Source of the DNA: a virus
IMG/VR virus record: IMGVR_UViG_3300017739_000004
Location: 1 to 64,000 of that record
Direction: 5' to 3' (one strand)
Length of the DNA stretch: 64,000 nt
Shown here: positions 637 through 10,760 of the stretch, one piece after another
How positions within the stretch are numbered: position 1 is the first letter of the stretch
Layout of the letters: each line of letters begins with the position of its first letter
Notes under the pieces: model-generated
Database searches by the model: none
The model's input: the letters and a program-made list of their open reading frames with translations, nothing else
Told to the model about the DNA's origin: nothing
Made by a program: the position numbers and the translations under genes

Positions 637-1053
637 ATGTATAGATATAAAGTAGTAGTCACTAGAATCGTAGATGGAGATACAGTAGATGTTGACATCG
701 ATCTAGGTTTCGGTATGACTTATAAAAAGCAAAGAGTTAGAATGATGGGTATAGATACTCCTGAATCTAGGACTCGTGATTTAGAAGAAAAGTTTTATGG
801 TAAAGCAAGTAAAGCTAATTTAGTTAGAATATTAGATGGTAAAGATATAGAATTAGTATCACATGATAAAGGTAAGTTCGGAAGAATACTCGGTGAGTTA
901 TTTATTGGGTCATCTAAGTTTAGTGTTAACCAACAACAAATAGACGAGAATCATGCGGTACCATATTTTGGACAATCTAAAGACGACACAGAACAAGGTC
1001 ATCTTTGGAATAGAGCAGCACTAAATGAAAAAGGTATTATTTACGAAGGCTAA
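637..1053 (+). CDS. Thermonuclease (SNase-like)
   Basis: RIVDGDT, RMMGIDTPE and GKFGRILG motifs. Confidence 0.9.
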   Translation: MYRYKVVVTRIVDGDTVDVDIDLGFGMTYKKQRVRMMGIDTPESRTRDLEEKFYGKASKANLVRILDGKDIELVSHDKGKFGRILGELFIGSSKFSVNQQQIDENHAVPYFGQSKDDTEQGHLWNRAALNEKGIIYEG

Positions 1054-1061
1054 AAAAACAG

Positions 1062-1090
1062 TTTACATTTACTTAAAAATGTGTTATAAT
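1062..1090 (+). promoter_or_regulatory. sigma70-type promoter
   Basis: TTTACA-17bp-TATAAT with TGTG extended -10. Confidence 0.85.
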
Positions 1091-1112
1091 ATAAACTTAT
1101 TATGGAGAGATT

Positions 1113-1445
1113 ATGAAAGAATCATTGAGAGTACTACAAGAATGCGCAGAGCTTCAAGCTAAAAAATCACAAGATTATCAAAGTGACGAATCTACTGTCA
1201 CTCAAGCTATGCACTATCGTAGAGGTGTAGATACAATACACGATATTATTTTAGGCAAAGTTGTTCGTGCAACTTCTTTACTAGAATCTGGCAATGAACC
1301 TAACTTTGAATCACTAGAAGATACTTACAAAGATTTAATTAATTATTCGTCTTTTGCTGTATCTTATATTCGTGGTAAGATGGAAGGTCAAGACCCTAAC
1401 AGAAATATGTTCAACAAAAAGGTAAAGAATGTATCAAGTGAATAA
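1113..1445 (+). CDS. DUF1599/Nmad1-like nucleotide-modification-associated protein
   Basis: KK..DY N-terminus and ESLEDT..DLINY; overlaps the gp42-like gene. Confidence 0.7.
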   Translation: MKESLRVLQECAELQAKKSQDYQSDESTVTQAMHYRRGVDTIHDIILGKVVRATSLLESGNEPNFESLEDTYKDLINYSSFAVSYIRGKMEGQDPNRNMFNKKVKNVSSE

Positions 1446-2106
1446 TACTGCAGATATTGCAGAAGTATTTAAAAAACACCTAGCAGCAGAAAACTTTGTC
1501 ACAGATAAAACAGGTCAAAAGACTATAGAAATAATCGGTGCATCTTTTGTTGCTGATCAGCCAGCAATATTTGGTGAACCAAATGAAAGATATATTGAAC
1601 ATGAATTAATGTGGTATGATAGAAAGTCAACTAATGTTTATGATATATACGGTCATGAACAAGCACCAAAAGCTTGGTTATATTCTGCAAATAAACACGG
1701 TGAAATCAATTCTAATTATGGCCATCTAATTTATTCTGGTAAATACTTTAGACAATACGATAAAGTATTAAAAGAATTACTTACAAATCCAGACTCAAGA
1801 CGTGGCTCTATGATCTATCAAAGACCAAGTATATGGAAAGAATACAAAGAGAATGGCAAGAATGATTTTATTTGTACCAATGCTGTGACATATTATATTC
1901 GTGATAATATGCTTCATGCTACAGTTCAAATGCGAAGTAATGATGTAGTCTTTGGTTATAAGAATGATTATGCTTGGCAAAAAGTTGTTCAAGAAAGATT
2001 ATTAGAAGATTTATATTATAATGGTACACACATCGAATTAGGCCACATTTATTGGCAAGTTCAAAACTTACATGTATATGAGAGGCATTTTGATTTAGTA
2101 ATATGA
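1429..2106 (+). CDS. 42: dCMP hydroxymethylase (T4 gp42-like, thymidylate synthase fold)
   Basis: DFICTN catalytic Cys; MRSNDVVFGYKNDYAWQ closely matches T4 gp42 MRSNDVVFGFRNDYAWQ including the dCMP-specifying Asp; LHVYERHF. Confidence 0.9.
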   Translation: MYQVNNTADIAEVFKKHLAAENFVTDKTGQKTIEIIGASFVADQPAIFGEPNERYIEHELMWYDRKSTNVYDIYGHEQAPKAWLYSANKHGEINSNYGHLIYSGKYFRQYDKVLKELLTNPDSRRGSMIYQRPSIWKEYKENGKNDFICTNAVTYYIRDNMLHATVQMRSNDVVFGYKNDYAWQKVVQERLLEDLYYNGTHIELGHIYWQVQNLHVYERHFDLVI

Positions 2107-2264
2107 AGAAGATATGGACAACTTGGAAATACGCAGTAGGTAGTTTTTCAGATGAACAAACAGAAGAGTACGACAATATAGTTGCGATAGTGAGAACTTT
2201 CATTGTTGGAATTAATATTATATGTGCATTCTTTATTATGGCAAATATAGTACACAATTGGTAA
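2103..2264 (+). CDS. Small membrane protein (53 aa, not in ORF track)
   Basis: MKKIWTTWKYAVGSFSDEQT...; ATGA overlap with the upstream stop; hydrophobic C-terminal half. Confidence 0.7.
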   Translation: MKKIWTTWKYAVGSFSDEQTEEYDNIVAIVRTFIVGINIICAFFIMANIVHNW

Positions 2265-2265
2265 T

Positions 2266-2517
2266 ATGAAAAAAAGAGAAGAGGCTTTAGTAATTACCAT
2301 GGAAGAATGTGGTGAATTAATACAAGCTTGTAGTAAAGTAATCAGAACAAAAGAAGATACAAAATATGTAAGAAATCTGCAAGATGAAATTGGAGATGTG
2401 TTAACTATGATAGAGATATTAAAGATGAGTGGTTTTGTCACAGATAAACAAATAGAAGATCGTATGAAACATAAAAAAGAAAAGTTAATGAAATGGAGTT
2501 TATTGTTTAATGGATAA
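2266..2517 (+). CDS. MazG-like NTP pyrophosphohydrolase
   Basis: EECGEL...DEIGDV acidic motifs. Confidence 0.8.
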   Translation: MKKREEALVITMEECGELIQACSKVIRTKEDTKYVRNLQDEIGDVLTMIEILKMSGFVTDKQIEDRMKHKKEKLMKWSLLFNG

Positions 2518-2944
2518 ATGGGATAAAAGATGGTTAGATATTGCAGGGCTAGTAAGTTCTTGGTCTAAAGACCCAAGTACTAAAATTGCTGCTATAGCTG
2601 TAAAAGATAAAAGATTAGTTGCCACAGGGTATAATGGTTTTCCACGAGATATTGAAGATACAGACGAAAGATGGAATAACCGTGAAGAAAAGTATAAGTA
2701 TGTAGTACATGCAGAAATGAATTGTATCTATAATGCGAATTATCATAACCAATCACTGAAAGGTGCGACAATGTATATTGTTGGTTTACCGGTTTGCCAT
2801 GAATGTGCAAAGGGTATTATTCAGGCAGGAGTTTCAAGAGTAGTTGCAACATTTGATGGTGTTCCAATGAAATGGTCAAAAAGTAATGAGATAACAGAAA
2901 AAATGTTTAAGGAAGCAGGAGTGACATATGACAAAGTTCGATAA
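2510..2944 (+). CDS. cd: dCMP deaminase
   Basis: SKDPST, TGYNG, HAEMN and PVCHEC zinc motifs. Confidence 0.92.
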   Translation: MDKWDKRWLDIAGLVSSWSKDPSTKIAAIAVKDKRLVATGYNGFPRDIEDTDERWNNREEKYKYVVHAEMNCIYNANYHNQSLKGATMYIVGLPVCHECAKGIIQAGVSRVVATFDGVPMKWSKSNEITEKMFKEAGVTYDKVR

Positions 2945-3221
2945 AAAAGAATTAGAAAATAGTAAAAGAATATTTAAATCAGCTACACCTAAATACGATG
3001 TTAGCTGGTATATAAAATGGGTTGCATCATGCTTTGTATTAGCAGCTATGTCAATGAGAGGAATAGAAGGCTTCCAAATTTATGATTTGATTTTATCTTT
3101 ATGTGGTATTGCTGGTTGGCTAATCGTATCAGTATTGTGGAGAGATAGAGCACTTATTGTGTTGAATGGAGTAGGCTTAATATTTTTATTAAGAAATTTA
3201 TTTGTATACTTGACAACATAG
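2928..3221 (+). CDS. Small multi-TM membrane protein
   Basis: Three hydrophobic segments, WRDRALIVLN. Confidence 0.6.
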   Translation: MTKFDKKELENSKRIFKSATPKYDVSWYIKWVASCFVLAAMSMRGIEGFQIYDLILSLCGIAGWLIVSVLWRDRALIVLNGVGLIFLLRNLFVYLTT

Positions 3222-3238
3222 ATTTAATGTGTTATAAT
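3210..3238 (+). promoter_or_regulatory. sigma70-type promoter (near-leaderless transcript)
   Basis: TTGACA-17bp-TATAAT; ATG at 3246. Confidence 0.85.
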
Positions 3239-3245
3239 ATACGTT

Positions 3246-4616
3246 ATGATTGGTAAAAAAATTGCAATAGTTTTTGGCAAGGGTCTAGACGGCTGTGGTG
3301 TCGAAAAGTTTGGTTATGAATGGCAAAGATATGATCCAGAAAATATCGATGTCTTTGCATTAAAAGAAAGAGCCTTCAATCGTGGAGGTACTCACATATC
3401 TGATTATGTAGAATTCAAACCAGACGAGATGTCTACAATCGCAGAAAGATTAAACAATGATTATGATATTGTTATAATCAATTCATATCCGAGTCCGATG
3501 CACAATCAAAAAACCGTCACAAGTTTTTATCGTGATCTAATATTAAAAATAGAAAAACCAATTCTAGTAAGTATGATGCATGAGATTATACAATCTAACT
3601 ATGATCGTATTCCATTACAAGTTGCGATCTCAAATGCAGCAGATGTAGTATTTAATTTTTCTACACATACAAATTATGCAAAAGACATGGCAAGAATTCT
3701 TACTAATAAAAAATTAGGTGAGAGAATTGCTAGAATGAAATTACCATTGACACTAGATGATTTTCAGAAGTGGAGAATTACACACGATCAAAAGAAAAGA
3801 AGATGTATCTATGCAGGCCGTTGGTCATCTATGAAACAACCTAATGTGATAATAGAACTATGGGAAAGAGATAAAGACTTTCACTATGCATTACATGGTA
3901 TAGAAAAATCTATTGGTGCTAAGTTTGATGTTATTGACCCTTGTGATTATTTTAGAAAGTATACAGGTACATATAACTATGAATCAGAAAGATGCGAATG
4001 CTTTGGAGAGTTTGATTATAACCAAGGTATGACATTAATATCAGAATCTATGTTTGGTTATAGTGGATTTCATTTACCAAAGATGCCACATAATTATGGC
4101 GATAGATTTGAATATGCACAGATGGAAATAATTGCATGTGGTACAGTTCCGATATTTGATAAACATTATAGTGAACATAACAAAGCAATTGATGGTAGTT
4201 TATTTGCAGAACACGATATTGCAATATGGAATGACCGCAATAATTTAGACAAAACAATAGAAAAGATACATGAGGTTGCAGACGACCATACAACATACTA
4301 TCAATATAACGAAGATGGTTTAGAATTTTTACACCAAGAAGCTGAATCAAGTGTGGTTATACCTCACATGATAAGACATATCTGTATTATGGGTAAACAA
4401 GAAGATAAGTGGAATACACAGGACTTATTAAGAGAAGTTTATAAGACTGAAGAAGTATATGACGAGTTTAATTATTTACTAGATAATAAGATCACAGCTC
4501 TCGGTGTAAAAGAAATTGATAATGGTGATCTAAGTTATTTTGAAAAGAAGGCAAGATTAATACATAAGAACGTGAGTGAATTAAATACGCAATCATTGGA
4601 GGATTTTTTTGGATAG
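3246..4616 (+). CDS. agt: DNA alpha-glycosyltransferase (T4 Agt-like, GT-B)
   Basis: GKGLDGCGVEKF resembles T4 ARGLEGCGVTKF; IINSYP resembles IINSVP; FEYAQMEIIACGTVPIF resembles LEYTHLELGACGTIPVF. Confidence 0.85.
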   Translation: MIGKKIAIVFGKGLDGCGVEKFGYEWQRYDPENIDVFALKERAFNRGGTHISDYVEFKPDEMSTIAERLNNDYDIVIINSYPSPMHNQKTVTSFYRDLILKIEKPILVSMMHEIIQSNYDRIPLQVAISNAADVVFNFSTHTNYAKDMARILTNKKLGERIARMKLPLTLDDFQKWRITHDQKKRRCIYAGRWSSMKQPNVIIELWERDKDFHYALHGIEKSIGAKFDVIDPCDYFRKYTGTYNYESERCECFGEFDYNQGMTLISESMFGYSGFHLPKMPHNYGDRFEYAQMEIIACGTVPIFDKHYSEHNKAIDGSLFAEHDIAIWNDRNNLDKTIEKIHEVADDHTTYYQYNEDGLEFLHQEAESSVVIPHMIRHICIMGKQEDKWNTQDLLREVYKTEEVYDEFNYLLDNKITALGVKEIDNGDLSYFEKKARLIHKNVSELNTQSLEDFFG

Positions 4617-4965
4617 TATAGTAATCGATATAGACGATACAATCTTATTTACAAATCATCAATACAAAGATGCTAAACGTAAATATGGTGAAGCAAAACC
4701 AAATGATATAGTAATCAAAGGTATAAGAAAGCTTCATGCAAAAGGTTATAAGATTATATTACATACAGCCAGACGAATGTTAACCTTTGATGGTGATATT
4801 GAAAAGATTATAGCTGATGTCGGAGACATAACTACATCATGGTTAGAAAGACATGAGGTGCCCTACGATGAACTCGTTTGGGGTAAACCATATAGTTCAA
4901 CCTATTATGTCGACGATAAAGCAATGAATTTACAAGAGTTTAAAGAATGGACAAATTCAATTTAA
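4609..4965 (+). CDS. HAD-family sugar-phosphate phosphatase (capsule-biosynthesis type)
   Basis: DIDDT, LHTAR and GKP..YYVDDKA motifs. Confidence 0.85.
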   Translation: MDSIVIDIDDTILFTNHQYKDAKRKYGEAKPNDIVIKGIRKLHAKGYKIILHTARRMLTFDGDIEKIIADVGDITTSWLERHEVPYDELVWGKPYSSTYYVDDKAMNLQEFKEWTNSI

Positions 4966-6434
4966 TAATACCAGCTGCAGGAGCAGCCACGAGACTAAGA
5001 CCTCTATCCTCGAGCACGTCGAAGGTAATGGTACGTGTGAATGGTAAACCTTGCCTTGACTATATCATAGAGGCAGTCAATGGATCCGTTGACGAAGTAG
5101 TTGTTGTGGATGGCCAATTCACTGATATTCGCGAATATTGTAAAGTGAAACATCCGAAGGTAAGGTTCGCCAACCAACCATCATTAGATGGTCCAAGAGA
5201 TGCAATTAAGATTGGAATGGAAGCTTTAGAAGATAGTGGAAAGCCAGTTGTTGTATGGCTTGGTGATGCAATTATCTTAGAAAAAGGTATGCCATTAGGT
5301 CATGACTTTTTATTAACTAAAAGAGTTGAAGATCAATCAGCATGGTGTATGTGGGATGGTCGAAACTATTATAATAAACCAAAACAACCAGTAGAAAATT
5401 CTAATGCTCTAGTTGGTTTATATTCTTTTAGTGATGGTGTTGCAGCTTTAAATGCTTTTAGTAATACAGATGGTTATGATATATCAGATGCTCTTATTGA
5501 ATATGTTATAGATAAAGATACAACGTTTGCAGAATATATCACAGAAAAATGGTACGATATTGGTGACCTTCCAACATATTATAAAACATGTGCAGCATTA
5601 TTAAACACAAAAGCTCGTGCATTTAATAATTTAAATTTTGATTCTGATTTAGGTACAATCAGAAAATTACCAGACTATCATGACAAACATTCATTAACAA
5701 CATTAAGAGAAGAAAAAGAATGGTATGAACATCTTACTCCAGAGCAATCTATGTTTACACCTAGAATATTACCACATCCTGTTGATTTAATTATGTCATA
5801 CGAAAGTGGCACTTTACTTAGTGATCTTATGTTATACGACAATATACCTAATAGTCATTGGGATTATATTATGGATAGAATCTTTAATATTAAATTAAAA
5901 TATTTTAACAATAGAGTAGAAGATAAAGACATTATAGACAGTTTTGATGAATTATCTAAAAAGATGTGGTGTGATAAAACAGAAGAAAGAGTATGTAATG
6001 AAATGTATGATAGCCATGTCGGTGCTAATCTAATAAAAAGAGCTGAATGGATTTATAAAAGAACATCGCCCATATCTGGAATGCATGGTGATTTACATTT
6101 TGCAAATATATTATATAATCAACAAACAGATCAATTTAAATTTTTAGACCCACGTGGTAATTATGGTGGTTGCATTGGAACAATAGGCGACGATATTTAT
6201 GACTGGGCCAAATTAGCACACGATTGTTATTGGGGTTATAACTCAATTGTTGCTGATGTACCACAAAATAAATATGTTAAAGATTTATTTACACGTAAAC
6301 TAGATGAATATAATTTAGATAAAGATTTAATATTGTATGGTGGATTAGTATTATTAGGTACTTGTATACCATTGCATTATGAAGATGCAGATAGACAAAA
6401 AAGAATGATGGAGATTATTAGAAATGAAATATAG
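4947..6434 (+). CDS. Sugar nucleotidyltransferase fused to APH/choline-kinase-like kinase
   Basis: N-terminal IIPAAGAATRL..K, LGD and WYDIG; C-terminal HGDLHFANIL and FLDPRG. Confidence 0.85.
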   Translation: MDKFNLIIPAAGAATRLRPLSSSTSKVMVRVNGKPCLDYIIEAVNGSVDEVVVVDGQFTDIREYCKVKHPKVRFANQPSLDGPRDAIKIGMEALEDSGKPVVVWLGDAIILEKGMPLGHDFLLTKRVEDQSAWCMWDGRNYYNKPKQPVENSNALVGLYSFSDGVAALNAFSNTDGYDISDALIEYVIDKDTTFAEYITEKWYDIGDLPTYYKTCAALLNTKARAFNNLNFDSDLGTIRKLPDYHDKHSLTTLREEKEWYEHLTPEQSMFTPRILPHPVDLIMSYESGTLLSDLMLYDNIPNSHWDYIMDRIFNIKLKYFNNRVEDKDIIDSFDELSKKMWCDKTEERVCNEMYDSHVGANLIKRAEWIYKRTSPISGMHGDLHFANILYNQQTDQFKFLDPRGNYGGCIGTIGDDIYDWAKLAHDCYWGYNSIVADVPQNKYVKDLFTRKLDEYNLDKDLILYGGLVLLGTCIPLHYEDADRQKRMMEIIRNEI

Positions 6435-7674
6435 TTCAATTATACCACTGATCGGTGGAGAGAGTATAGCGGTAATGAATAAGTTAAATGGACAAATGCC
6501 AGAGGAAGTTTTATCTTACACTGGCTTTGTAGATAACGATAGTCATTACATTAATTATTTAAGAGATAAAGGGTGGGAAGGTAAATACACTTTATTAGAT
6601 GAAAAGTCAAACCATAAACCAAAGAAAGTAGATATCGTAAATACAGTTTGTCCTTGTGCAGGTCTATCATCACTATCACAACATACAGTTCGTAATGAAG
6701 GCCACAATGACTGGATGTTTGAATCAGCACATTATGTTTTAGGTAAGATACAACCAAGAGTGTTTTGGGGTGAGAACGCACCAAGACTAGCAATGGAACC
6801 CGGTAAAGAGGTTGTAGCTAAATTAAGAGATATTGGTAAAGAGTATGGATATACGTTTAGCATCTATAAAACTAAATCTTTAGTACAAGGATATAGCCAA
6901 ATTAGAGATAGAACATTTTACTTCTTTTGGAAAGGAGATCAAACACCTTTACTAGATTATATACACAGACCACATGAACTAATTGAAGATACTATTTCAA
7001 ATGTTGTAAACAAAAAAGACGACCCTATGAGCGTTGTTCCTAATCAGAAAAAACCATCAGACGATCCAGTTTACAAATATTTTTTAAATAAAACTGGTAT
7101 GACTCATGCTGAGTTTGTTGCAGCATTACCTGGACCTAATATGAATTTATTTGATTATATGGATTATATTGGAGGAGAGACTAAATGTGTCGGACCAAAT
7201 ACAGGTAAAACATATGCTGGTTGGCTAGAGGTATTAGAACATTTAAAAGGTAATGATGATGAACATTCTGCTAGATGGGCAAAGAGTATAGAAAGAATGG
7301 TTGCTAAACAAAAAGCTGGTGGTAGCGTTATGAGAAAGAGTACCACATTTCCAAAGGGACATATCGGAGCATTTGTTGGCCACTATCCATCTATGTTAAC
7401 ACATCCAGTAGAAGATAGATATTTAACTTATAGAGAAATGTTATCTATAATGTATCTGCCAGAAGATTTTGAATTATTACATCCAAAGAAATTTCAAAAT
7501 CATATATGCCAAAATGTACCAGTCAAAACTGCTGAAGATATGATGGAACAAGTTATAAAGTTCTGTAATAATAGATTAGATTTAATTGATACTGATTATA
7601 TTTTACAAGATAATAAAAGAAAGTGCCATGAATATGCAGAAAACAGTTTACAATTGGACCAGTTTATGGTATAA
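6424..7674 (+). CDS. C5-cytosine DNA methyltransferase-like protein
   Basis: PCAGLS (motif IV), GENAP (VI), QIRDR (VIII), RYLTYRE and QNVPV (IX/X); motif I degenerate (PLIGG). Confidence 0.8.
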
Positions 7675-7694
7675 TAGTAGACATAATATAAATA
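7647..7694 (+). promoter_or_regulatory. sigma70 promoter plus T4 late promoter
   Basis: TTTACA 7647, TATAAT 7670, TATAAATA 7687. Confidence 0.8.
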
Positions 7695-7708
7695 TAATAG
7701 GAGTGATT

Positions 7709-7969
7709 ATGCCAAGTGTTGATTTAAGACCAAGAAAAAGACATCCAAAAGATAAACGTCCAGCAAGACCAATGCCTTTTGATGTCGGATTAAGAAAATT
7801 TAGAAAATCCTGTGAGAAAGCAGGTATTGTTCAAGAGGTACGTAAAAGAGAATTTTACGAGAAGCCTACAGCAAAAAGAAAACGAAAAAAAGCCGAAGCA
7901 AGAGCTAGACATCTTAAAGCTTTAAGAATGGAACAAGCTTCAGGTTTTGCAATGAGGAGAAGTAGATAA
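7709..7969 (+). CDS. rpsU: Ribosomal protein bS21
   Basis: [38 protein letters not shown]; AGGAG RBS before ATG 7709. Confidence 0.92.
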
Positions 7970-9021
7970 TGTCAATAATGGATAAATTGAAAAAGAATAG
8001 TAAAGTAAAAAGTACTGATATATTATCAGAATCTATATTATTCGGAGAGAAGGATATGATTCCTACAGATGTGCCTATGGTAAACGTTGCTTTATCAGGA
8101 GATATGGACGGAGGCTTGTCATCAGGTCTTACAGTATTGGCAGGGCCGTCTAAACATTTTAAGACAAGTTTTGCTTTACTTATGGGTTCAGCCTATATGA
8201 AGAAATATCCAGAAGCTGTTATGCTTTTCTATGATTCAGAATTTGGTTCTCCACAGAACTATTTTGAATCTTTTGGTATTGATACAGATAGGGTATTACA
8301 TACACCGATTCAAAACGTTGAGGAATTAAAATTTGACTTAGTTAGCCAATTAGAAAATATTGAAAGGGACGATAAAGTAATTATTGTAATCGATTCAATT
8401 GGTAACTTAGCATCTAAAAAAGAATTAGAAGATGCACTGAATGAAAAATCAGTTGCTGATATGACAAGAGCTAAAGCATTGAAGGGATTGTTCCGTATGG
8501 TCACTCCTTATCTCACTATGAGGAACGTCCCTTTACTTGCTGTCAACCACACCTATCAAGAAATAGGATTATTTCCTAAAGCAATTGTATCAGGTGGTAC
8601 AGGTATTTATTACTCAGCTGATAATATTTGGATTATTGGTAGGCGTCAACAGAAAAAAGGTACTGATGTCACAGGATATCACTTTATAGTTAATGTAGAG
8701 AAATCAAGGTTTGTAAAAGAGAAATCTAAAATACCAGTTGAAGTCACTTGGGAAGGCGGTATCGCATCCTATGGTGGAATACTAGATGTAGCTTTAGCCG
8801 GCGGCTATGTGACCAAACCAAATGTTGGTTGGTACGCAAGAGTTAACAAAGATACAGGTGAAATTGAAGATGGTAAAGTACGAGAAAAAGATACTAAGAC
8901 TAAAGAGTTTTGGGATCCAATCTTTGAAGAAACTGACTTTAAAGAATTTGTAAAATCTTATTATTCTATTGGTCATAAACCATTACTTGACATTGACTTA
9001 GACATAGTAATGGAGGAATAA
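7969..9021 (+). CDS. uvsX: UvsX RecA-like recombinase
   Basis: AGPSKHFKT Walker A, YDSEFG, IDSIGNLAS. Confidence 0.96.
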   Translation: MSIMDKLKKNSKVKSTDILSESILFGEKDMIPTDVPMVNVALSGDMDGGLSSGLTVLAGPSKHFKTSFALLMGSAYMKKYPEAVMLFYDSEFGSPQNYFESFGIDTDRVLHTPIQNVEELKFDLVSQLENIERDDKVIIVIDSIGNLASKKELEDALNEKSVADMTRAKALKGLFRMVTPYLTMRNVPLLAVNHTYQEIGLFPKAIVSGGTGIYYSADNIWIIGRRQQKKGTDVTGYHFIVNVEKSRFVKEKSKIPVEVTWEGGIASYGGILDVALAGGYVTKPNVGWYARVNKDTGEIEDGKVREKDTKTKEFWDPIFEETDFKEFVKSYYSIGHKPLLDIDLDIVMEE

Positions 9022-9097
9022 TGTTTAAAACAATTTATAAAGCCTTTCACAAATTTATGAAATCTGGAAGGATAAATAAAATTATTAAGATGATAAC

Positions 9098-9418
9098 ATG
9101 ATAACAGAATCTGATTATAAATTTGTAGAAAACCCATCACACCCACTTCATGGAGTGAGGTATACACAGGGTGCATATAAAGACGTGACTGTTATATATG
9201 GAACAGTGAAAATTAAAGAAAGTCCTGAGCTCGATATGGCGAGCTTAGGATTTACCTTTCAAATAATAGACCCTGCAGATTATACTGTAGACGAACTCCA
9301 AGAAAGTGAAGATTTTAAAAATTATATGGGTGCAGTATTACAACATATAATTGAAAATAATTTAGAGGATATGAAAATTGGAACAACTCCAGACACACAT
9401 ACTGAGCCATCTTCTTAA
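9098..9418 (+). CDS. Probable gp40-like head vertex assembly chaperone
   Basis: Position between uvsX and 41 as in T4; similar size. Confidence 0.45.
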   Translation: MITESDYKFVENPSHPLHGVRYTQGAYKDVTVIYGTVKIKESPELDMASLGFTFQIIDPADYTVDELQESEDFKNYMGAVLQHIIENNLEDMKIGTTPDTHTEPSS

Positions 9419-10760
9419 TAACGAAGAGTATTGCAGAAGAGTAATACCTTATATTAAGAACGAATATTTTGAAGGCTCACACAAAACAGTTTTTGATCTA
9501 ATCGTTTCTTTTGTTAGTAAGCATAATAAATTACCAACAGGAAAAGTATTAGAATTAGAACTCAGAAAAATCAATGCACACGAAGATGTATTAAATCAAG
9601 CCTCAGTATTAATTGGTGAGCTTAAAAATAAATCAGACGTAGACACAGAATATCTAATACAAGAATCAGAAAAGTGGTGTAAAGAAAGAGCAGTCTATAA
9701 TGCTATCATGGAATCTATACAGATTATTGATGGTAAAGATACAAAGAGAAGTGAAGGTGTTATACCTGAAATACTATCTGATGCTTTAGGCACATCTTTT
9801 GACCAAGAAATAGGTCATGATTACGTTGATAACTCGGAAGATAGATTTGATTTTTATAACACAAAAGAAGATCGTATACCATTTGATTTAGATTACTTTA
9901 ATAAAATTACAAAAGGTGGATTACCAAACAAGACTTTAAATATTGCTCTTGCCGGGACTGGCGTAGGTAAATCTTTGTTTATGTGTCATTGTGCTGCTTC
10001 AGTCCTGGAACAAGGCAAGAACGTATTATATATTACAATGGAAATGGCCGAAGAAAGAATCGCAGAAAGAATAGATGCGAACCTTATGAATCTTCCAATA
10101 GAAAGATTAGGGTCATTACCTAAAAATGTATTTAACGAAAAGATACAAAAGATTGCAAAAGCATCTATTGGTAAACTTATTATTAAAGAATACCCAACAG
10201 GTGCAGCTCACACAGGACATTTTAGAGCCTTATTAAACGAACTTAAATTAAAAAAGAATTTTAAACCAGACATTATATATGTTGATTATTTGAATATTTG
10301 TTCTTCCAGCCGTATGCGCGGGTTAGGTGGAAGTATAAATAGTTATTCGTATATCAAAGCAATCGCTGAAGAACTCAGAGGATTAGCTGTGGAATTCAAT
10401 GTTCCGATAGTGTCGGCAACACAGACGACGAGGTCTGGGTATAGTAATACTGACGTTGGCCTAGAAGATACATCTGAATCATTTGGTTTACCAGCAACTG
10501 CCGACTTGATGTTTGCTATTATTAGCACAGAAGAGTTAGAAGAATTAGGACAGTTATTAGTAAAACAATTGAAAAACCGATATAACGATCCTACGAAATA
10601 TCGCAGATTTGTGGTAGGAGTAGATCGGTCTCGTATGAAACTTTATGATGTTGAGGAGTCTGCACAATCAGATATTATGTCAGATATGGTGCCAGACAAG
10701 CCAATAAATAAGTTTGGTGAAAGAGAACAACCGGATTCTTTCACTGACTTTAAAGTATAA
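9378..10760 (+). CDS. 41: Replicative DNA helicase gp41
   Basis: AGTGVGKS, ITMEMAEE, VDYLN, SATQTTR, SESFGLPATAD; TTG start. Confidence 0.96.
   Translation: MEQLQTHILSHLLNNEEYCRRVIPYIKNEYFEGSHKTVFDLIVSFVSKHNKLPTGKVLELELRKINAHEDVLNQASVLIGELKNKSDVDTEYLIQESEKWCKERAVYNAIMESIQIIDGKDTKRSEGVIPEILSDALGTSFDQEIGHDYVDNSEDRFDFYNTKEDRIPFDLDYFNKITKGGLPNKTLNIALAGTGVGKSLFMCHCAASVLEQGKNVLYITMEMAEERIAERIDANLMNLPIERLGSLPKNVFNEKIQKIAKASIGKLIIKEYPTGAAHTGHFRALLNELKLKKNFKPDIIYVDYLNICSSSRMRGLGGSINSYSYIKAIAEELRGLAVEFNVPIVSATQTTRSGYSNTDVGLEDTSESFGLPATADLMFAIISTEELEELGQLLVKQLKNRYNDPTKYRRFVVGVDRSRMKLYDVEESAQSDIMSDMVPDKPINKFGEREQPDSFTDFKV

Follow-up and report, generated by a model that had tools for sequence, protein, structure and literature searches.

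The window, a stretch of 64,000 nucleotides (positions 1 to 64,000 of IMG/VR record IMGVR_UViG_3300017739_000004), comes from an uncultured, marine, T4-like phage whose record is ~61% complete, and it carries what we read as a cytosine hypermodification system of two operons, placed in the T4-like genome where T4 itself has genes 42 and beta-gt. Open reading frames and profile matches placed all of the genes named in a first-pass annotation of this DNA on the + strand, at or near where it had put them, and added three cluster genes that were not on its list (the DUF6552 gene, the 53-aa ORF and the C5-methyltransferase-like gene). The features are as follows.

637..1053, + strand, staphylococcal-nuclease-like endonuclease at the cluster head (PF00565, E 2.7e-10; phrog_452, E 2.5e-34)
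1062..1090, + strand, sigma-70-type promoter-like site before the nucleotide-pool genes (TTTACA-17-TATAAT with TG, 11/12 matches)
1113..1445, + strand, Nmad1/DUF1599 all-alpha pyrophosphohydrolase-like protein (PF07659, E 6.7e-7; phrog_1485, E 1.3e-11)
1429..2106, + strand, gp42-type dCMP hydroxymethylase, a thymidylate-synthase homolog (PF00303, E 9e-17; PDB 1b5e, T4 gp42, E 2.2e-69)
2103..2264, + strand, 53-aa ORF (open frame only)
2266..2517, + strand, MazG-like NTP pyrophosphohydrolase (PF03819, E 5e-5; phrog_4856, E 2.7e-18)
2510..2944, + strand, dCMP deaminase (PF00383, E 5.6e-18; phrog_174, E 1e-44)
2928..3221, + strand, DUF6552 protein (PF20189, E 4e-18)
3210..3238, + strand, perfect sigma-70 consensus promoter-like site before the transferase/sugar operon (TTGACA-17-TATAAT with TG, 12/12 matches)
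3246..4616, + strand, AGT-family (T4 alpha-glucosyltransferase) DNA glycosyltransferase (PF11440, 57 bits, cut-off 25 bits; phrog_2888, E 7e-73; PDB 1y6f, E 6.6e-25)
4609..4965, + strand, small HAD phosphatase, AfhF-like (DIDDT, i.e. DxDxT, motif at residues 7-11; PDB 1xpj, E 9e-19; 9iqw, E 7.5e-5)
4947..6434, + strand, fusion of an N-terminal sugar-1-phosphate nucleotidyltransferase and a C-terminal APH-fold sugar kinase, AfhE-like (PF00483, E 9e-16)
6424..7674, + strand, divergent C5-cytosine-methyltransferase-like protein (PF00145, E 1e-13)

The first operon holds the nucleotide-pool genes. The endonuclease gene at the cluster head is a kept neighbour, which many relatives also have immediately ahead of Nmad1, and the promoter-like site behind it, a consensus match only, occupies the gap ahead of the start codon at 1113. 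The Nmad1/DUF1599 gene adjoins the hydroxymethylase gene in relatives too, and its product is a candidate sanitiser of the dCTP/dNTP pool; the MazG-like protein may act as a dCTPase, as gp56 does in T4. Many relatives have a DUF6552 gene between deaminase and transferase, and a search with the 53-aa ORF returned no family match. The thymidylate-synthase homolog is strongly supported by its alignment as a true T4 gp42-type dCMP hydroxymethylase that makes 5-hydroxymethyl-dCMP, because it is 53% identical to T4 gp42, compared with 28% to the RB69 5-hydroxy-dCMP synthase gp48, and has Asp at the residue that tells the two enzymes apart, which is Asn in every 5-hydroxy-dCMP synthase tested (PMC13326640). 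Cys149 is retained, Asp stands at the equivalents of ThyA 143, 169 and 177, and the dCMP-specifying Asp claimed by the first-pass annotation is indeed present, in the motif MRSNDVVFGYKNDY, identical to that of T4 gp42. The homologs in related loci agree, with 56/56 reading MRSND...ND.

In the second operon, the end of the promoter-like site, again a consensus match only, lies 8 nt upstream of the ATG at 3246. Because start and stop codons overlap throughout the AGT-like, HAD, fusion and C5-methyltransferase-like genes, and because the 12/12 site lies at 3210-3238, we take these genes to be one operon; the overlap of the HAD gene with the AGT-like gene, already pointed out in the earlier annotation, measures 8 nt. 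The AGT-like protein, matched by phrog_2888 over residues 3-384, shares 31.8% identity with Bacillus phage G gp313 and ~27% with T4 Agt, and is predicted to place a sugar on hmC in DNA.

The HAD protein (30% identical to RB69 gp51, and 43% to the HAD proteins of both Enterococcus phage 9183 and XG4) is predicted to strip a non-anomeric phosphate from a sugar bisphosphate. In a profile search the fusion matched phrog_4098, the RB69 gp52:53 family, over residues 6-436 (E 4.9e-25), its best PHROG match being not this family but phrog_24015; it falls into a distant clade separate from the RB69 fusion, with weak pairwise similarity to RB69 AfhE (33-35% over 60-70 residues), and a protein of Enterococcus phage 9183 bridges it to the Mosigvirus AfhE homologs. 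In an AF2 model (pLDDT 89.5), the N-domain matched RmlA, UGPase, MurU and LicC structures (Z 20-23.5) and the C-domain methylthioribose kinase (Z 16.2) and APH(2'') (Z 16.0), modelled folds that fit a nucleotidyltransferase-kinase assignment; the kinase motifs HGDLHFAN and DPRG are found in the fusion as well. On sequence comparison, the HAD is distantly homologous to AfhF and the fusion to AfhE, a pair for which Lee et al. 2026 (PMC13326640) report UDP-arabinose synthesis in RB69/HY126-type phages via kinase, phosphatase and pyrophosphorylase reactions.

The arrangement is not due to chance, since 83 non-duplicate IMG/VR loci show this gene block again. The HAD gene lies at most 150 nt from the fusion in 78/79 loci, and in 83 loci the pair adjoins a DNA-type glycosyltransferase and an enzyme that makes the cytosine handle. 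This linkage spans three transferase families (AGT-like, BGT-like "GT-X" and TAGT) and two handle systems (hydroxymethylase or TET), and the HAD and fusion were retained through 7 or more exchanges of transferase type or handle type; the pair is the stable core of the module. As in T6, an AGT is paired with a TAGT in close relatives of the window, isolate XG4 has the gene order TS-HAD-fusion-GT-GT-C5MT, and the module is carried by phages of Bacillus, Enterococcus and Pseudoalteromonas. An arabinose-5-phosphate isomerase was found neither in the window's record, the records of 5 relatives and the 83 loci, nor in the complete isolate genomes with the module (XG4, 9183, DLP6, phage G), in a search that recovered the RB69 enzyme as a control; sugar-tailoring enzymes (isomerase, epimerase, dehydratase) turned up in none of the 83 loci.

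The C5-methyltransferase-like gene, which overlaps the fusion gene, belongs to the same conserved block. It occurs in 66/83 related loci, in every case adjoining the sugar genes, as it also does in isolate XG4, and in 0/9 TET-type loci. Its product retains Cys78, ENA and QxRxR, with motif I reading PLIGG in all homologs. The gene is linked to the sugar module and, judging by the overlap, co-transcribed with it; it counts against the completeness of the pathway proposed below.

We consider that the cluster probably yields glycosylated hmC by way of a phage-produced NDP-sugar, probably one other than glucose (probability roughly 60%). The gp42-type enzyme, with strong support, would convert dCMP to 5-hydroxymethyl-dCMP, and the MazG/Nmad1-type pyrophosphohydrolases and dCMP deaminase would shape the nucleotide pool, so that the phage polymerase builds hmC DNA. 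Judged by homology to AfhE/AfhF and by the linked genes, the kinase domain at the C-terminus of the fusion would phosphorylate a host sugar phosphate at the anomeric carbon, the HAD phosphatase would take off the other phosphate, and the N-terminal nucleotidyltransferase would turn the resulting sugar-1-phosphate into an NDP-sugar. The AGT-family transferase may then attach this sugar to DNA, at the hydroxymethyl group of the hmC residues, and the decorated DNA would be protected from host nucleases. Which sugar is moved, on which nucleotide carrier and to which acceptor are inferences for this sub-type as a whole. The sugar is more likely non-glucose and taken straight from a common sugar phosphate, because the module has no isomerase and a kinase and phosphatase are needless for glucose-1-phosphate; the simplest analogy would be a pentofuranose, for example ribose, or arabinose made by the host. 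The main inference of the first-pass annotation, hmC carrying a probably non-glucose sugar from a phage-made nucleotide sugar, is thereby the best-supported reading after testing, given the gp42-type hydroxymethylase, the homology of the HAD and fusion to characterised AfhF/AfhE, and the linkage in 83 loci.

An ordinary glucosyl-hmC is unlikely; in that reading the HAD and fusion would provide a host-independent UDP-glucose route (glucose-6-phosphate to glucose-1,6-bisphosphate, glucose-1-phosphate and UDP-glucose) that would let glucosylation continue in hosts with little UDP-glucose or galU/pgm loss. In its favour, the transferase is a member of the T4 alpha-glucosyltransferase family, T4 Agt and T6 TAGT use UDP-glucose, T6 TAGT adds a second glucose (PMC13390438), and close relatives carry a TAGT like that of T6, so the product could be plain glucosyl- or gentiobiosyl-hmC. 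The top structural matches of the N-domain are glucose-1-phosphate thymidylyl-/uridylyltransferases, and the lack of isomerase, epimerase and dehydratase in the 83 loci also fits glucose. Glucose-1-phosphate and UDP-glucose are, however, standard metabolites in hosts as diverse as Bacillus, Enterococcus and Pseudoalteromonas, and in hosts with glucose-1-phosphate the kinase and phosphatase would be redundant, one uridylyltransferase being sufficient. The sole characterised relative makes UDP-arabinofuranose, the identity to T4 Agt is low (see above), and the closest isolate AGT-like homologs, those of phage G, are themselves tied to kinase, HAD and nucleotidyltransferase genes. The window otherwise resembles the T-even system (T4 gp42, gp56, gp1, cd, Agt/Bgt; T2/T6 Agt and TAGT) in its gp42-type hydroxymethylase, dCMP deaminase, MazG-type pyrophosphohydrolases and AGT-family transferase, but T-even phages rely on host UDP-glucose, have zero sugar-activation genes and lack the C5-methyltransferase-like partner. 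Homologs of a gp1-type dNMP kinase and a gp56-type dCTPase were not detected by tblastn, which is weak evidence against the main reading, as the record is 61% complete.

That the NDP-sugar serves virion-protein or host-surface glycosylation, with the proximity of the hmC genes incidental, is quite improbable: cellular homologs of the HAD and fusion do have a Wza-like exporter, an epimerase and WavE as neighbours in polysaccharide loci, and PDB 9iqw is titled 'capsule biosynthesis protein', yet in the 83 viral loci the pair always adjoins a DNA-type transferase and a hydroxymethylase or TET, lies inside a replication/nucleotide module, tracks its partners through the swaps, and in the window forms one operon with the AGT-like gene, which the HAD gene overlaps. 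Direct membership in the published pathway to arabinosyl-5-hydroxycytosine, known from RB69, DLP3, HY126, Bas46/47, LC53 and Thanatos (Lee et al. 2026 NAR, PMC13326640; also Mahler et al. 2025 and He et al., both cited in PMC13326640), is very improbable. Both systems have a thymidylate-synthase homolog that creates the handle on the mononucleotide, homologous small HAD and nucleotidyltransferase-kinase proteins for the NDP-sugar, GT-B transferases acting on DNA, and a T4-like slot with DNA polymerase/primase genes on one side and uvsX/gene 41 on the other, and the RB69 family profile matches the fusion. The window, in contrast, points to hmC (Asp at ThyA-169) where RB69-type phages have 5-hydroxycytosine (Asn), its thymidylate-synthase homolog sides with gp42 over gp48, its transferase is AGT-family and not of RB69 type, its fusion is in the distant clade, a C5-methyltransferase-like partner is present, and searches found neither the isomerase nor homologs of RB69 gp46:47, U32-like gp50 and thymidylate-kinase-like gp45. 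A LicC/LicA-like fusion that makes a CDP-alcohol such as CDP-choline and no nucleotide sugar is scarcely credible: LicC is the top PDB sequence match of the N-domain (1jyk, E 8e-8) and there is a weak Pfam choline kinase match (E 0.004), but RB69 gp52:53 was reported with the same resemblances and its family makes UDP-arabinose, the linked transferases are glycosyltransferases and not LicD-type phosphotransferases, and a choline route has no use for a HAD phosphatase.

The cluster thus appears to be an hmC-based cousin of the RB69 arabinose system. A phage-made NDP-sugar for DNA has a close published precedent in the RB69/DLP3/HY126 pathway, so the concept is not new and novelty is limited to the hmC-based, isomerase-free, AGT-linked form. 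In Bacillus phage G (gp306-gp319), whose host is Gram-positive, two AGT-like genes are nearer to the window's transferase (31-32%) than any other isolate homolog and enclose gp311 (a kinase-domain homolog), gp310 (a HAD) and gp309 (a nucleotidyltransferase), adjoined by a deaminase, a thymidylate kinase and a thymidylate-synthase homolog with the hydroxymethylase signature. Kinase and nucleotidyltransferase are separate genes there and fused in the window, the HAD is larger and of a different type, and the stretch examined lacks the C5-methyltransferase-like gene; the sugar specificity of gp306 needs testing (Thomas et al. 2018). In phage TET/C5-MT/glycosyltransferase clusters, phage transferases, TAGT-type included, likewise glycosylate hmC in DNA (Burke et al. 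2021, PMC8256090). Host UDP-Glc or UDP-GlcNAc was shown to be the donor in those clusters, which are described without a kinase/HAD/nucleotidyltransferase module (PMC8256090); the window, unlike them, is without TET and would have its hmC made before replication. Nine relatives of the window's fusion occur in TET and TAGT clusters.

Taken from a source record of 102,948 bp (estimated completeness 61%), of which it makes up the first 64 kb, the window has a G+C content of about 32%. On the strength of its replication genes the phage can be placed, by sequence, with T4-like phages of marine origin; the gp41 helicase it encodes is 60–63% identical to cyanomyovirus and Methylophilales phage helicases, and UvsX and ribosomal protein S21 genes lie near the modification cluster. 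From 637 to 10760 every gene is on the + strand and the genes are tightly packed, and a megablast of the region against isolate phages gave zero matches at the DNA level. The gene order was assigned from Pfam and PHROG scans as follows.

Gene order of the modification cluster (Pfam/PHROG assignments, except for the 53-aa ORF)
637-1053, + strand, SNase-like nuclease
1113-1445, + strand, Nmad1/DUF1599
1429-2106, + strand, thymidylate-synthase (TS) homolog
2103-2264, + strand, 53-aa ORF
2266-2517, + strand, MazG
2510-2944, + strand, dCMP deaminase
2928-3221, + strand, DUF6552
3246-4616, + strand, AGT-family glycosyltransferase
4609-4965, + strand, small HAD phosphatase
4947-6434, + strand, nucleotidyltransferase-kinase fusion
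6424-7674, + strand, C5-cytosine-methyltransferase-like protein
after 7674, S21, UvsX and gp41

At the end of the block, the four genes encoding the AGT-like transferase, the HAD, the fusion and the C5-methyltransferase-like protein overlap one another by 8 to 19 nt. The coordinates and the Pfam and PHROG scans bore out every gene named in the first-pass annotation, and its interpretation, that the phage makes its own nucleotide sugar and decorates hmC with something other than glucose, is supported by the hydroxymethylase signature, by the homology of the HAD and the fusion, and by their linkage to a DNA glycosyltransferase and an enzyme that makes the cytosine handle (the group carrying the sugar).

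The identity of the base matters because RB69 and DLP3 were recently shown to use 5-hydroxycytosine as the handle, making arabinosyl-5-hydroxycytosine and not arabosyl-hmC as formerly believed (Lee et al. 2026 NAR, PMC13326640). The TS homologs of these phages hydroxylate dCMP, every enzyme tested carries an Asn where E. coli ThyA has Asp169, and, by a rule from the same paper, an acidic side chain in place of ThyA Leu143 admits water (PMC13326640). The TS homolog of the window is 53% identical to T4 gp42 (PDB 1b5e) over 207 residues (E 2.2e-69) and 28% identical to RB69 gp48, and it scores 61.5 bits against PF00303. In alignment, its motif MRSNDVVFGYKNDY matches MRSNDVVFGFRNDY of T4, the equivalent stretch of RB69 gp48 being MRSQNC, and the Asn at the ThyA Asp169 position that marks 5-hydroxy-dCMP synthases is absent from the window protein (MRSND vs MRSQN in RB69 gp48). 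Its catalytic Cys149, in NDFICTN, aligns with T4 Cys148, the Asp at the ThyA Leu143 position lies in NDFIC (aligned with SDFMC of T4), and the dCMP-specifying Asp, in YKNDY, aligns with T4 Asp179 at the ThyA Asn177 position. Since Asp is found at ThyA-169 and ThyA-177, the ThyA-143 position is acidic and the catalytic Cys is kept, the product of 1429-2106 is by sequence a hydroxymethylase, which would make the handle 5hmC; the earlier identification of a gp42-like hydroxymethylase with the dCMP-specifying Asp thus holds. The MRSND signature is present in all TS homologs of related loci (56/56). An apparent Asn-type enzyme (RSTN) in three relatives was rejected, alignment placing this regular-expression match upstream of the genuine MRSND motif. 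No second thymidylate synthase or ThyX was found in the 103-kb record.

The transferase at 3246-4616 scores 57.4 bits against PF11440 (curated cut-off 25), matches phrog_2888 at E 7e-73, and matches PDB 1y6f at E 6.6e-25 across two stretches, 4-147 and 263-371. It can be assigned on these matches to the T4 DNA alpha-glucosyltransferase family (Pfam AGT), with predicted transfer to hmC-DNA. Close relatives (L005, L007, L022, L015 and others) encode a second, TAGT-like glycosyltransferase of 267-281 aa between MazG and the AGT-like gene, and because of it they probably make a disaccharide; in L007 an N6/N4 DNA methylase lies in the same stretch. The window, compared over 2266-3246, has no TAGT-like gene, and its MazG is instead upstream of the deaminase.

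The HAD and the fusion form the putative sugar-activation pair. The small HAD carries a DxDxT motif (DIDDT), matches the small HAD structure 1xpj (E 9e-19) and 9iqw (E 7.5e-5), and shares 30% identity with RB69 gp51 (E 4e-10) and 43% with its counterparts in Enterococcus phage 9183 and in Pseudoalteromonas phage XG4. The entry 9iqw is presumably the structure of HY126 AfhF, because its PDB code falls in the same run as those of two entries named 'thymidylate synthase', similar in length to RB69 gp48, that the search with the TS homolog retrieved. The 495-aa fusion has an N-terminal nucleotidyltransferase signature, with PF00483 and PF12804 matching residues 7-113, and a kinase domain with HGDxxxxN (HGDLHFAN) and DPRG motifs. 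Direct pairwise similarity to RB69 gp52:53 is weak; the fusion matches phrog_4098 over almost its entire length (residues 6-436, E 4.9e-25), and this family contains both RB69 halves (E 1e-118 and 1e-169). A protein of Enterococcus phage 9183 links the groups, matching the window fusion at E 7e-30 and, at about 1e-15, Mosigvirus proteins that carry a UDP-arabinose biosynthesis annotation. An AlphaFold2 model of the fusion (pLDDT 89.5) comprises two domains: residues 1-225 resemble RmlA (Z 23.5) and MurU (Z 20.8), with UDP-glucose pyrophosphorylases, GlmU and LicC within Z 20-23.5, and residues 213-495 resemble 5-methylthioribose kinase (Z 16.2) and the aminoglycoside phosphotransferase APH(2'') (Z 16.0), which are effectively tied. 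Sequence and model together predict an AfhE-like architecture, a sugar-1-phosphate nucleotidyltransferase followed by an APH-fold kinase; no solved AfhE structure was retrieved by sequence search or Foldseek. According to the work of He et al. as described in PMC13326640, AfhE puts a phosphate on C1 of arabinose-5-phosphate, AfhF strips the 5-phosphate, and the N-domain of AfhE then yields UDP-arabinofuranose. The HAD and fusion of the window agree with this three-step scheme.

Two scans of IMG/VR recovered 83 non-duplicate loci with fusion relatives at 46-83% identity, and these loci were annotated by blastp. In 78 of 79 loci no more than 150 nt separate the HAD from the fusion, and wherever a locus is untruncated the pair adjoins a DNA-type glycosyltransferase and a cytosine-handle maker. 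The commonest configuration (43 loci) combines a hydroxymethylase with a 410-430-aa GT-B enzyme, here called GT-X, which also adjoins the module of two isolates, XG4 and 9183; 25 loci, those of the window type among them, combine a hydroxymethylase with an AGT-like enzyme, with or without a T6-style TAGT; and in nine a TET dioxygenase is joined to a TAGT. In a FastTree phylogeny of the fusion proteins the AGT-linked group is nested within the GT-X-linked one, and the configuration switches at least seven times (midpoint root, direction tentative). Because these switches occur around it, the pair is the stable core of the system, and the transferase and handle maker are exchangeable; that the pair stays constant while its partners are swapped is also strong circumstantial evidence that the pair makes the donor used in DNA glycosylation. 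The cluster of the relatives sits between DNA polymerase/primase and uvsX/gene 41, the same slot that is occupied in T4 by genes 42 and beta-gt and in RB69 by the arabinose cluster. In the TET-type loci (L051, L052, L056, L057, L061, L065 and L071-L073) a TET/JBP dioxygenase and the TAGT replace the hydroxymethylase beside the pair, a combination not described in the paper on phage TET clusters (Burke et al. 2021, PMC8256090). Within the 103-kb record of the window, tblastn with the TET protein of locus L011 and with the other transferases gave no match.

The gene at 6424-7674 encodes a 416-aa protein in which the catalytic Cys, ENA (in place of ENV) and QxRxR are kept. All of its homologs, including that of XG4 (32% identity), have PL(I/V)GG as motif I and QNVP as motif X. 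The gene occurs in 66 of the 83 loci, invariably beside the sugar genes, and in none of the nine TET-type loci; hydroxymethylase-type loci that lack it mostly stop at or right after the sugar genes. It is thus part of the conserved block, and its role is puzzling because hmC DNA offers nothing for an ordinary C5 methyltransferase to act on. The protein, whose cofactor motif is altered, may perform a further step on the modified cytosine.

Among cultured phages, Bacillus phage G (NC_023719, 221806-237125; locus L021) encodes two AGT-like proteins, the closest isolate homologs of the window transferase (31-32%), whose genes flank a kinase-domain gene (gp311), a HAD (gp310) and a nucleotidyltransferase (gp309), next to a TS homolog with the hydroxymethylase signature (gp319), a deaminase and a thymidylate kinase. 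Phage G follows the same logic in split genes and is an independent case of the module linked to DNA glycosylation genes; the sugar specificity of its AGT-like enzymes was flagged as untested by Thomas et al. 2018. In XG4 the gene order is TS-HAD-fusion-GT-GT-C5MT. The fusion was found in four Enterococcus phage records, with 9183, TJE4 and Planchet among the matches listed. Cytosine is glycosylated in the Enterococcus phages VPE25 and VFW, with a sugar never chemically identified (Duerkop et al. 2016, PMC4999554), and since the listed carriers are other phages, the VPE25 and VFW findings are probably not informative here.

As to which sugar is activated, RB69 and DLP3 differ from the window in having an arabinose-5-phosphate isomerase inside the cluster. 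A search for SIS domains found no match in the window's record (61% complete), in the records of five relatives, or in XG4, 9183, DLP6 and phage G, whose genomes are complete, whereas the RB69 positive control matched, and blastp with RB69 gp55 found no isomerase across the 83 loci. The host could supply the sugar instead of a linked isomerase. Two of the hosts of XG4, 9183, DLP6 and phage G are Gram-positive, and Gram-positive hosts are not known to have a Kdo pathway that would supply arabinose-5-phosphate. Unknown ORFs of the relatives were considered as sugar-tailoring enzymes, and none of those tested was one; they were instead primase, MazG-like, methyltransferase-like, clamp or clamp-loader proteins, or had no assignment. 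As neither an isomerase nor another sugar-tailoring enzyme was found, the substrate is probably a common host sugar phosphate.

Glucose itself is the main rival, given the transferase family, that of the T4 alpha-glucosyltransferase, and the T6-like pairing of AGT and TAGT in close relatives. Glucose-1-phosphate, however, is made by every host and needs neither kinase nor phosphatase, and the module is retained in phages whose hosts have ample UDP-glucose; we favour a non-glucose sugar over glucose by roughly two to one. The simplest analogy to AfhE would be a pentofuranose, be it ribose drawn from ribose-5-phosphate or arabinose supplied by the host, and the methylthioribose kinase tie in the structural model may weakly hint in the same direction. 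The most far-reaching interpretation compatible with the data, to which we give a probability of about one in three (0.35), is that the base is hmC bearing a non-glucose sugar, at its simplest a pentofuranose drawn from ribose-5-phosphate or host arabinose-5-phosphate through an isomerase-free route of the AfhE/AfhF type, with the C5-methyltransferase-like partner adding a further step, in marine T4-like phages as well as XG4, 9183 and phage G.

A phage-made NDP-sugar for DNA has already been published for 5-hydroxycytosine (PMC13326640, where Mahler et al. 2025 is cited for the same precedent), and the RB69 arabinose system, in which no hmC is involved, was solved only in 2025-2026 (PMC13326640). 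Our literature search found no paper on a form of the system that is built on hmC, lacks an isomerase and combines AGT-family or GT-X transferases with a methyltransferase-like partner. The present comparison shows the same sugar-activation pair joined to a true hmC pathway and forming, in many ocean viruses (83 IMG/VR loci, more than 260 protein clusters), a fixed core whose transferase and handle-maker partners change. Sugars on phage DNA determine its attack by restriction systems, CRISPR systems and DNA glycosylases, and each new sugar-base pair has yielded enzymes for epigenetic sequencing. If the sugar is not glucose, these viruses hold an abundant, chemically undescribed DNA base, and would in addition provide an isomerase-free route to an NDP-sugar and a puzzling methyltransferase-like enzyme operating alongside hmC. 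The idea is testable immediately, because three cultured phages, phage G among them, carry the module.

Pairs of the same kind also occur in cells: on contigs of Komagataeibacter (L100), Enterovirga (L104), Brevundimonas (L105) and Phenylobacterium (L108) a bacterial HAD lies directly upstream of a fusion, and the HADs of these alphaproteobacterial pairs are 36-40% identical to the phage HADs. Their neighbours (a Wza-like exporter, an epimerase, WavE and an FkbM methyltransferase) are those of polysaccharide loci, which suggests that the phage module was acquired from polysaccharide biosynthesis, with the cellular pairs as its likely origin; in the loci examined the neighbours do not name the sugar. 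A whole phage cluster was found on the 28,041-bp contig PBVB01000110.1 (L098), binned in the Flavobacteriaceae MAG RS438, and this binning hints weakly at Flavobacteriaceae as hosts of the lineage.

Three sigma-70-like promoter sites with an extended -10 were noted around the cluster.

Sigma-70-like promoter sites (extended -10)
1062-1090, + strand, 11/12 consensus match only, directly before Nmad1
3210-3238, + strand, 12/12 consensus match only, directly before the AGT-like gene
7647-7675, 11/12 consensus match, within the long S21 ORF call

The sites at 1062-1090 and 3210-3238 would be compatible with two early transcription units. The S21 ORF was called at 7586-7969 with a TTG start (127 aa) and is probably over-called, since the S21 proteins of relatives are only 86-88 aa; its true start is likely near 7709. 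Searches of the 103-kb record (61% complete) by tblastn with RB69 gp1, gp56, gp45, gp46/47 and gp50 gave no match. An SNase-like endonuclease (637-1053 in the window) stands first in the cluster, as it does in many relatives, and by analogy it might be a candidate counterpart of the T4 nucleases that break down host DNA containing cytosine.
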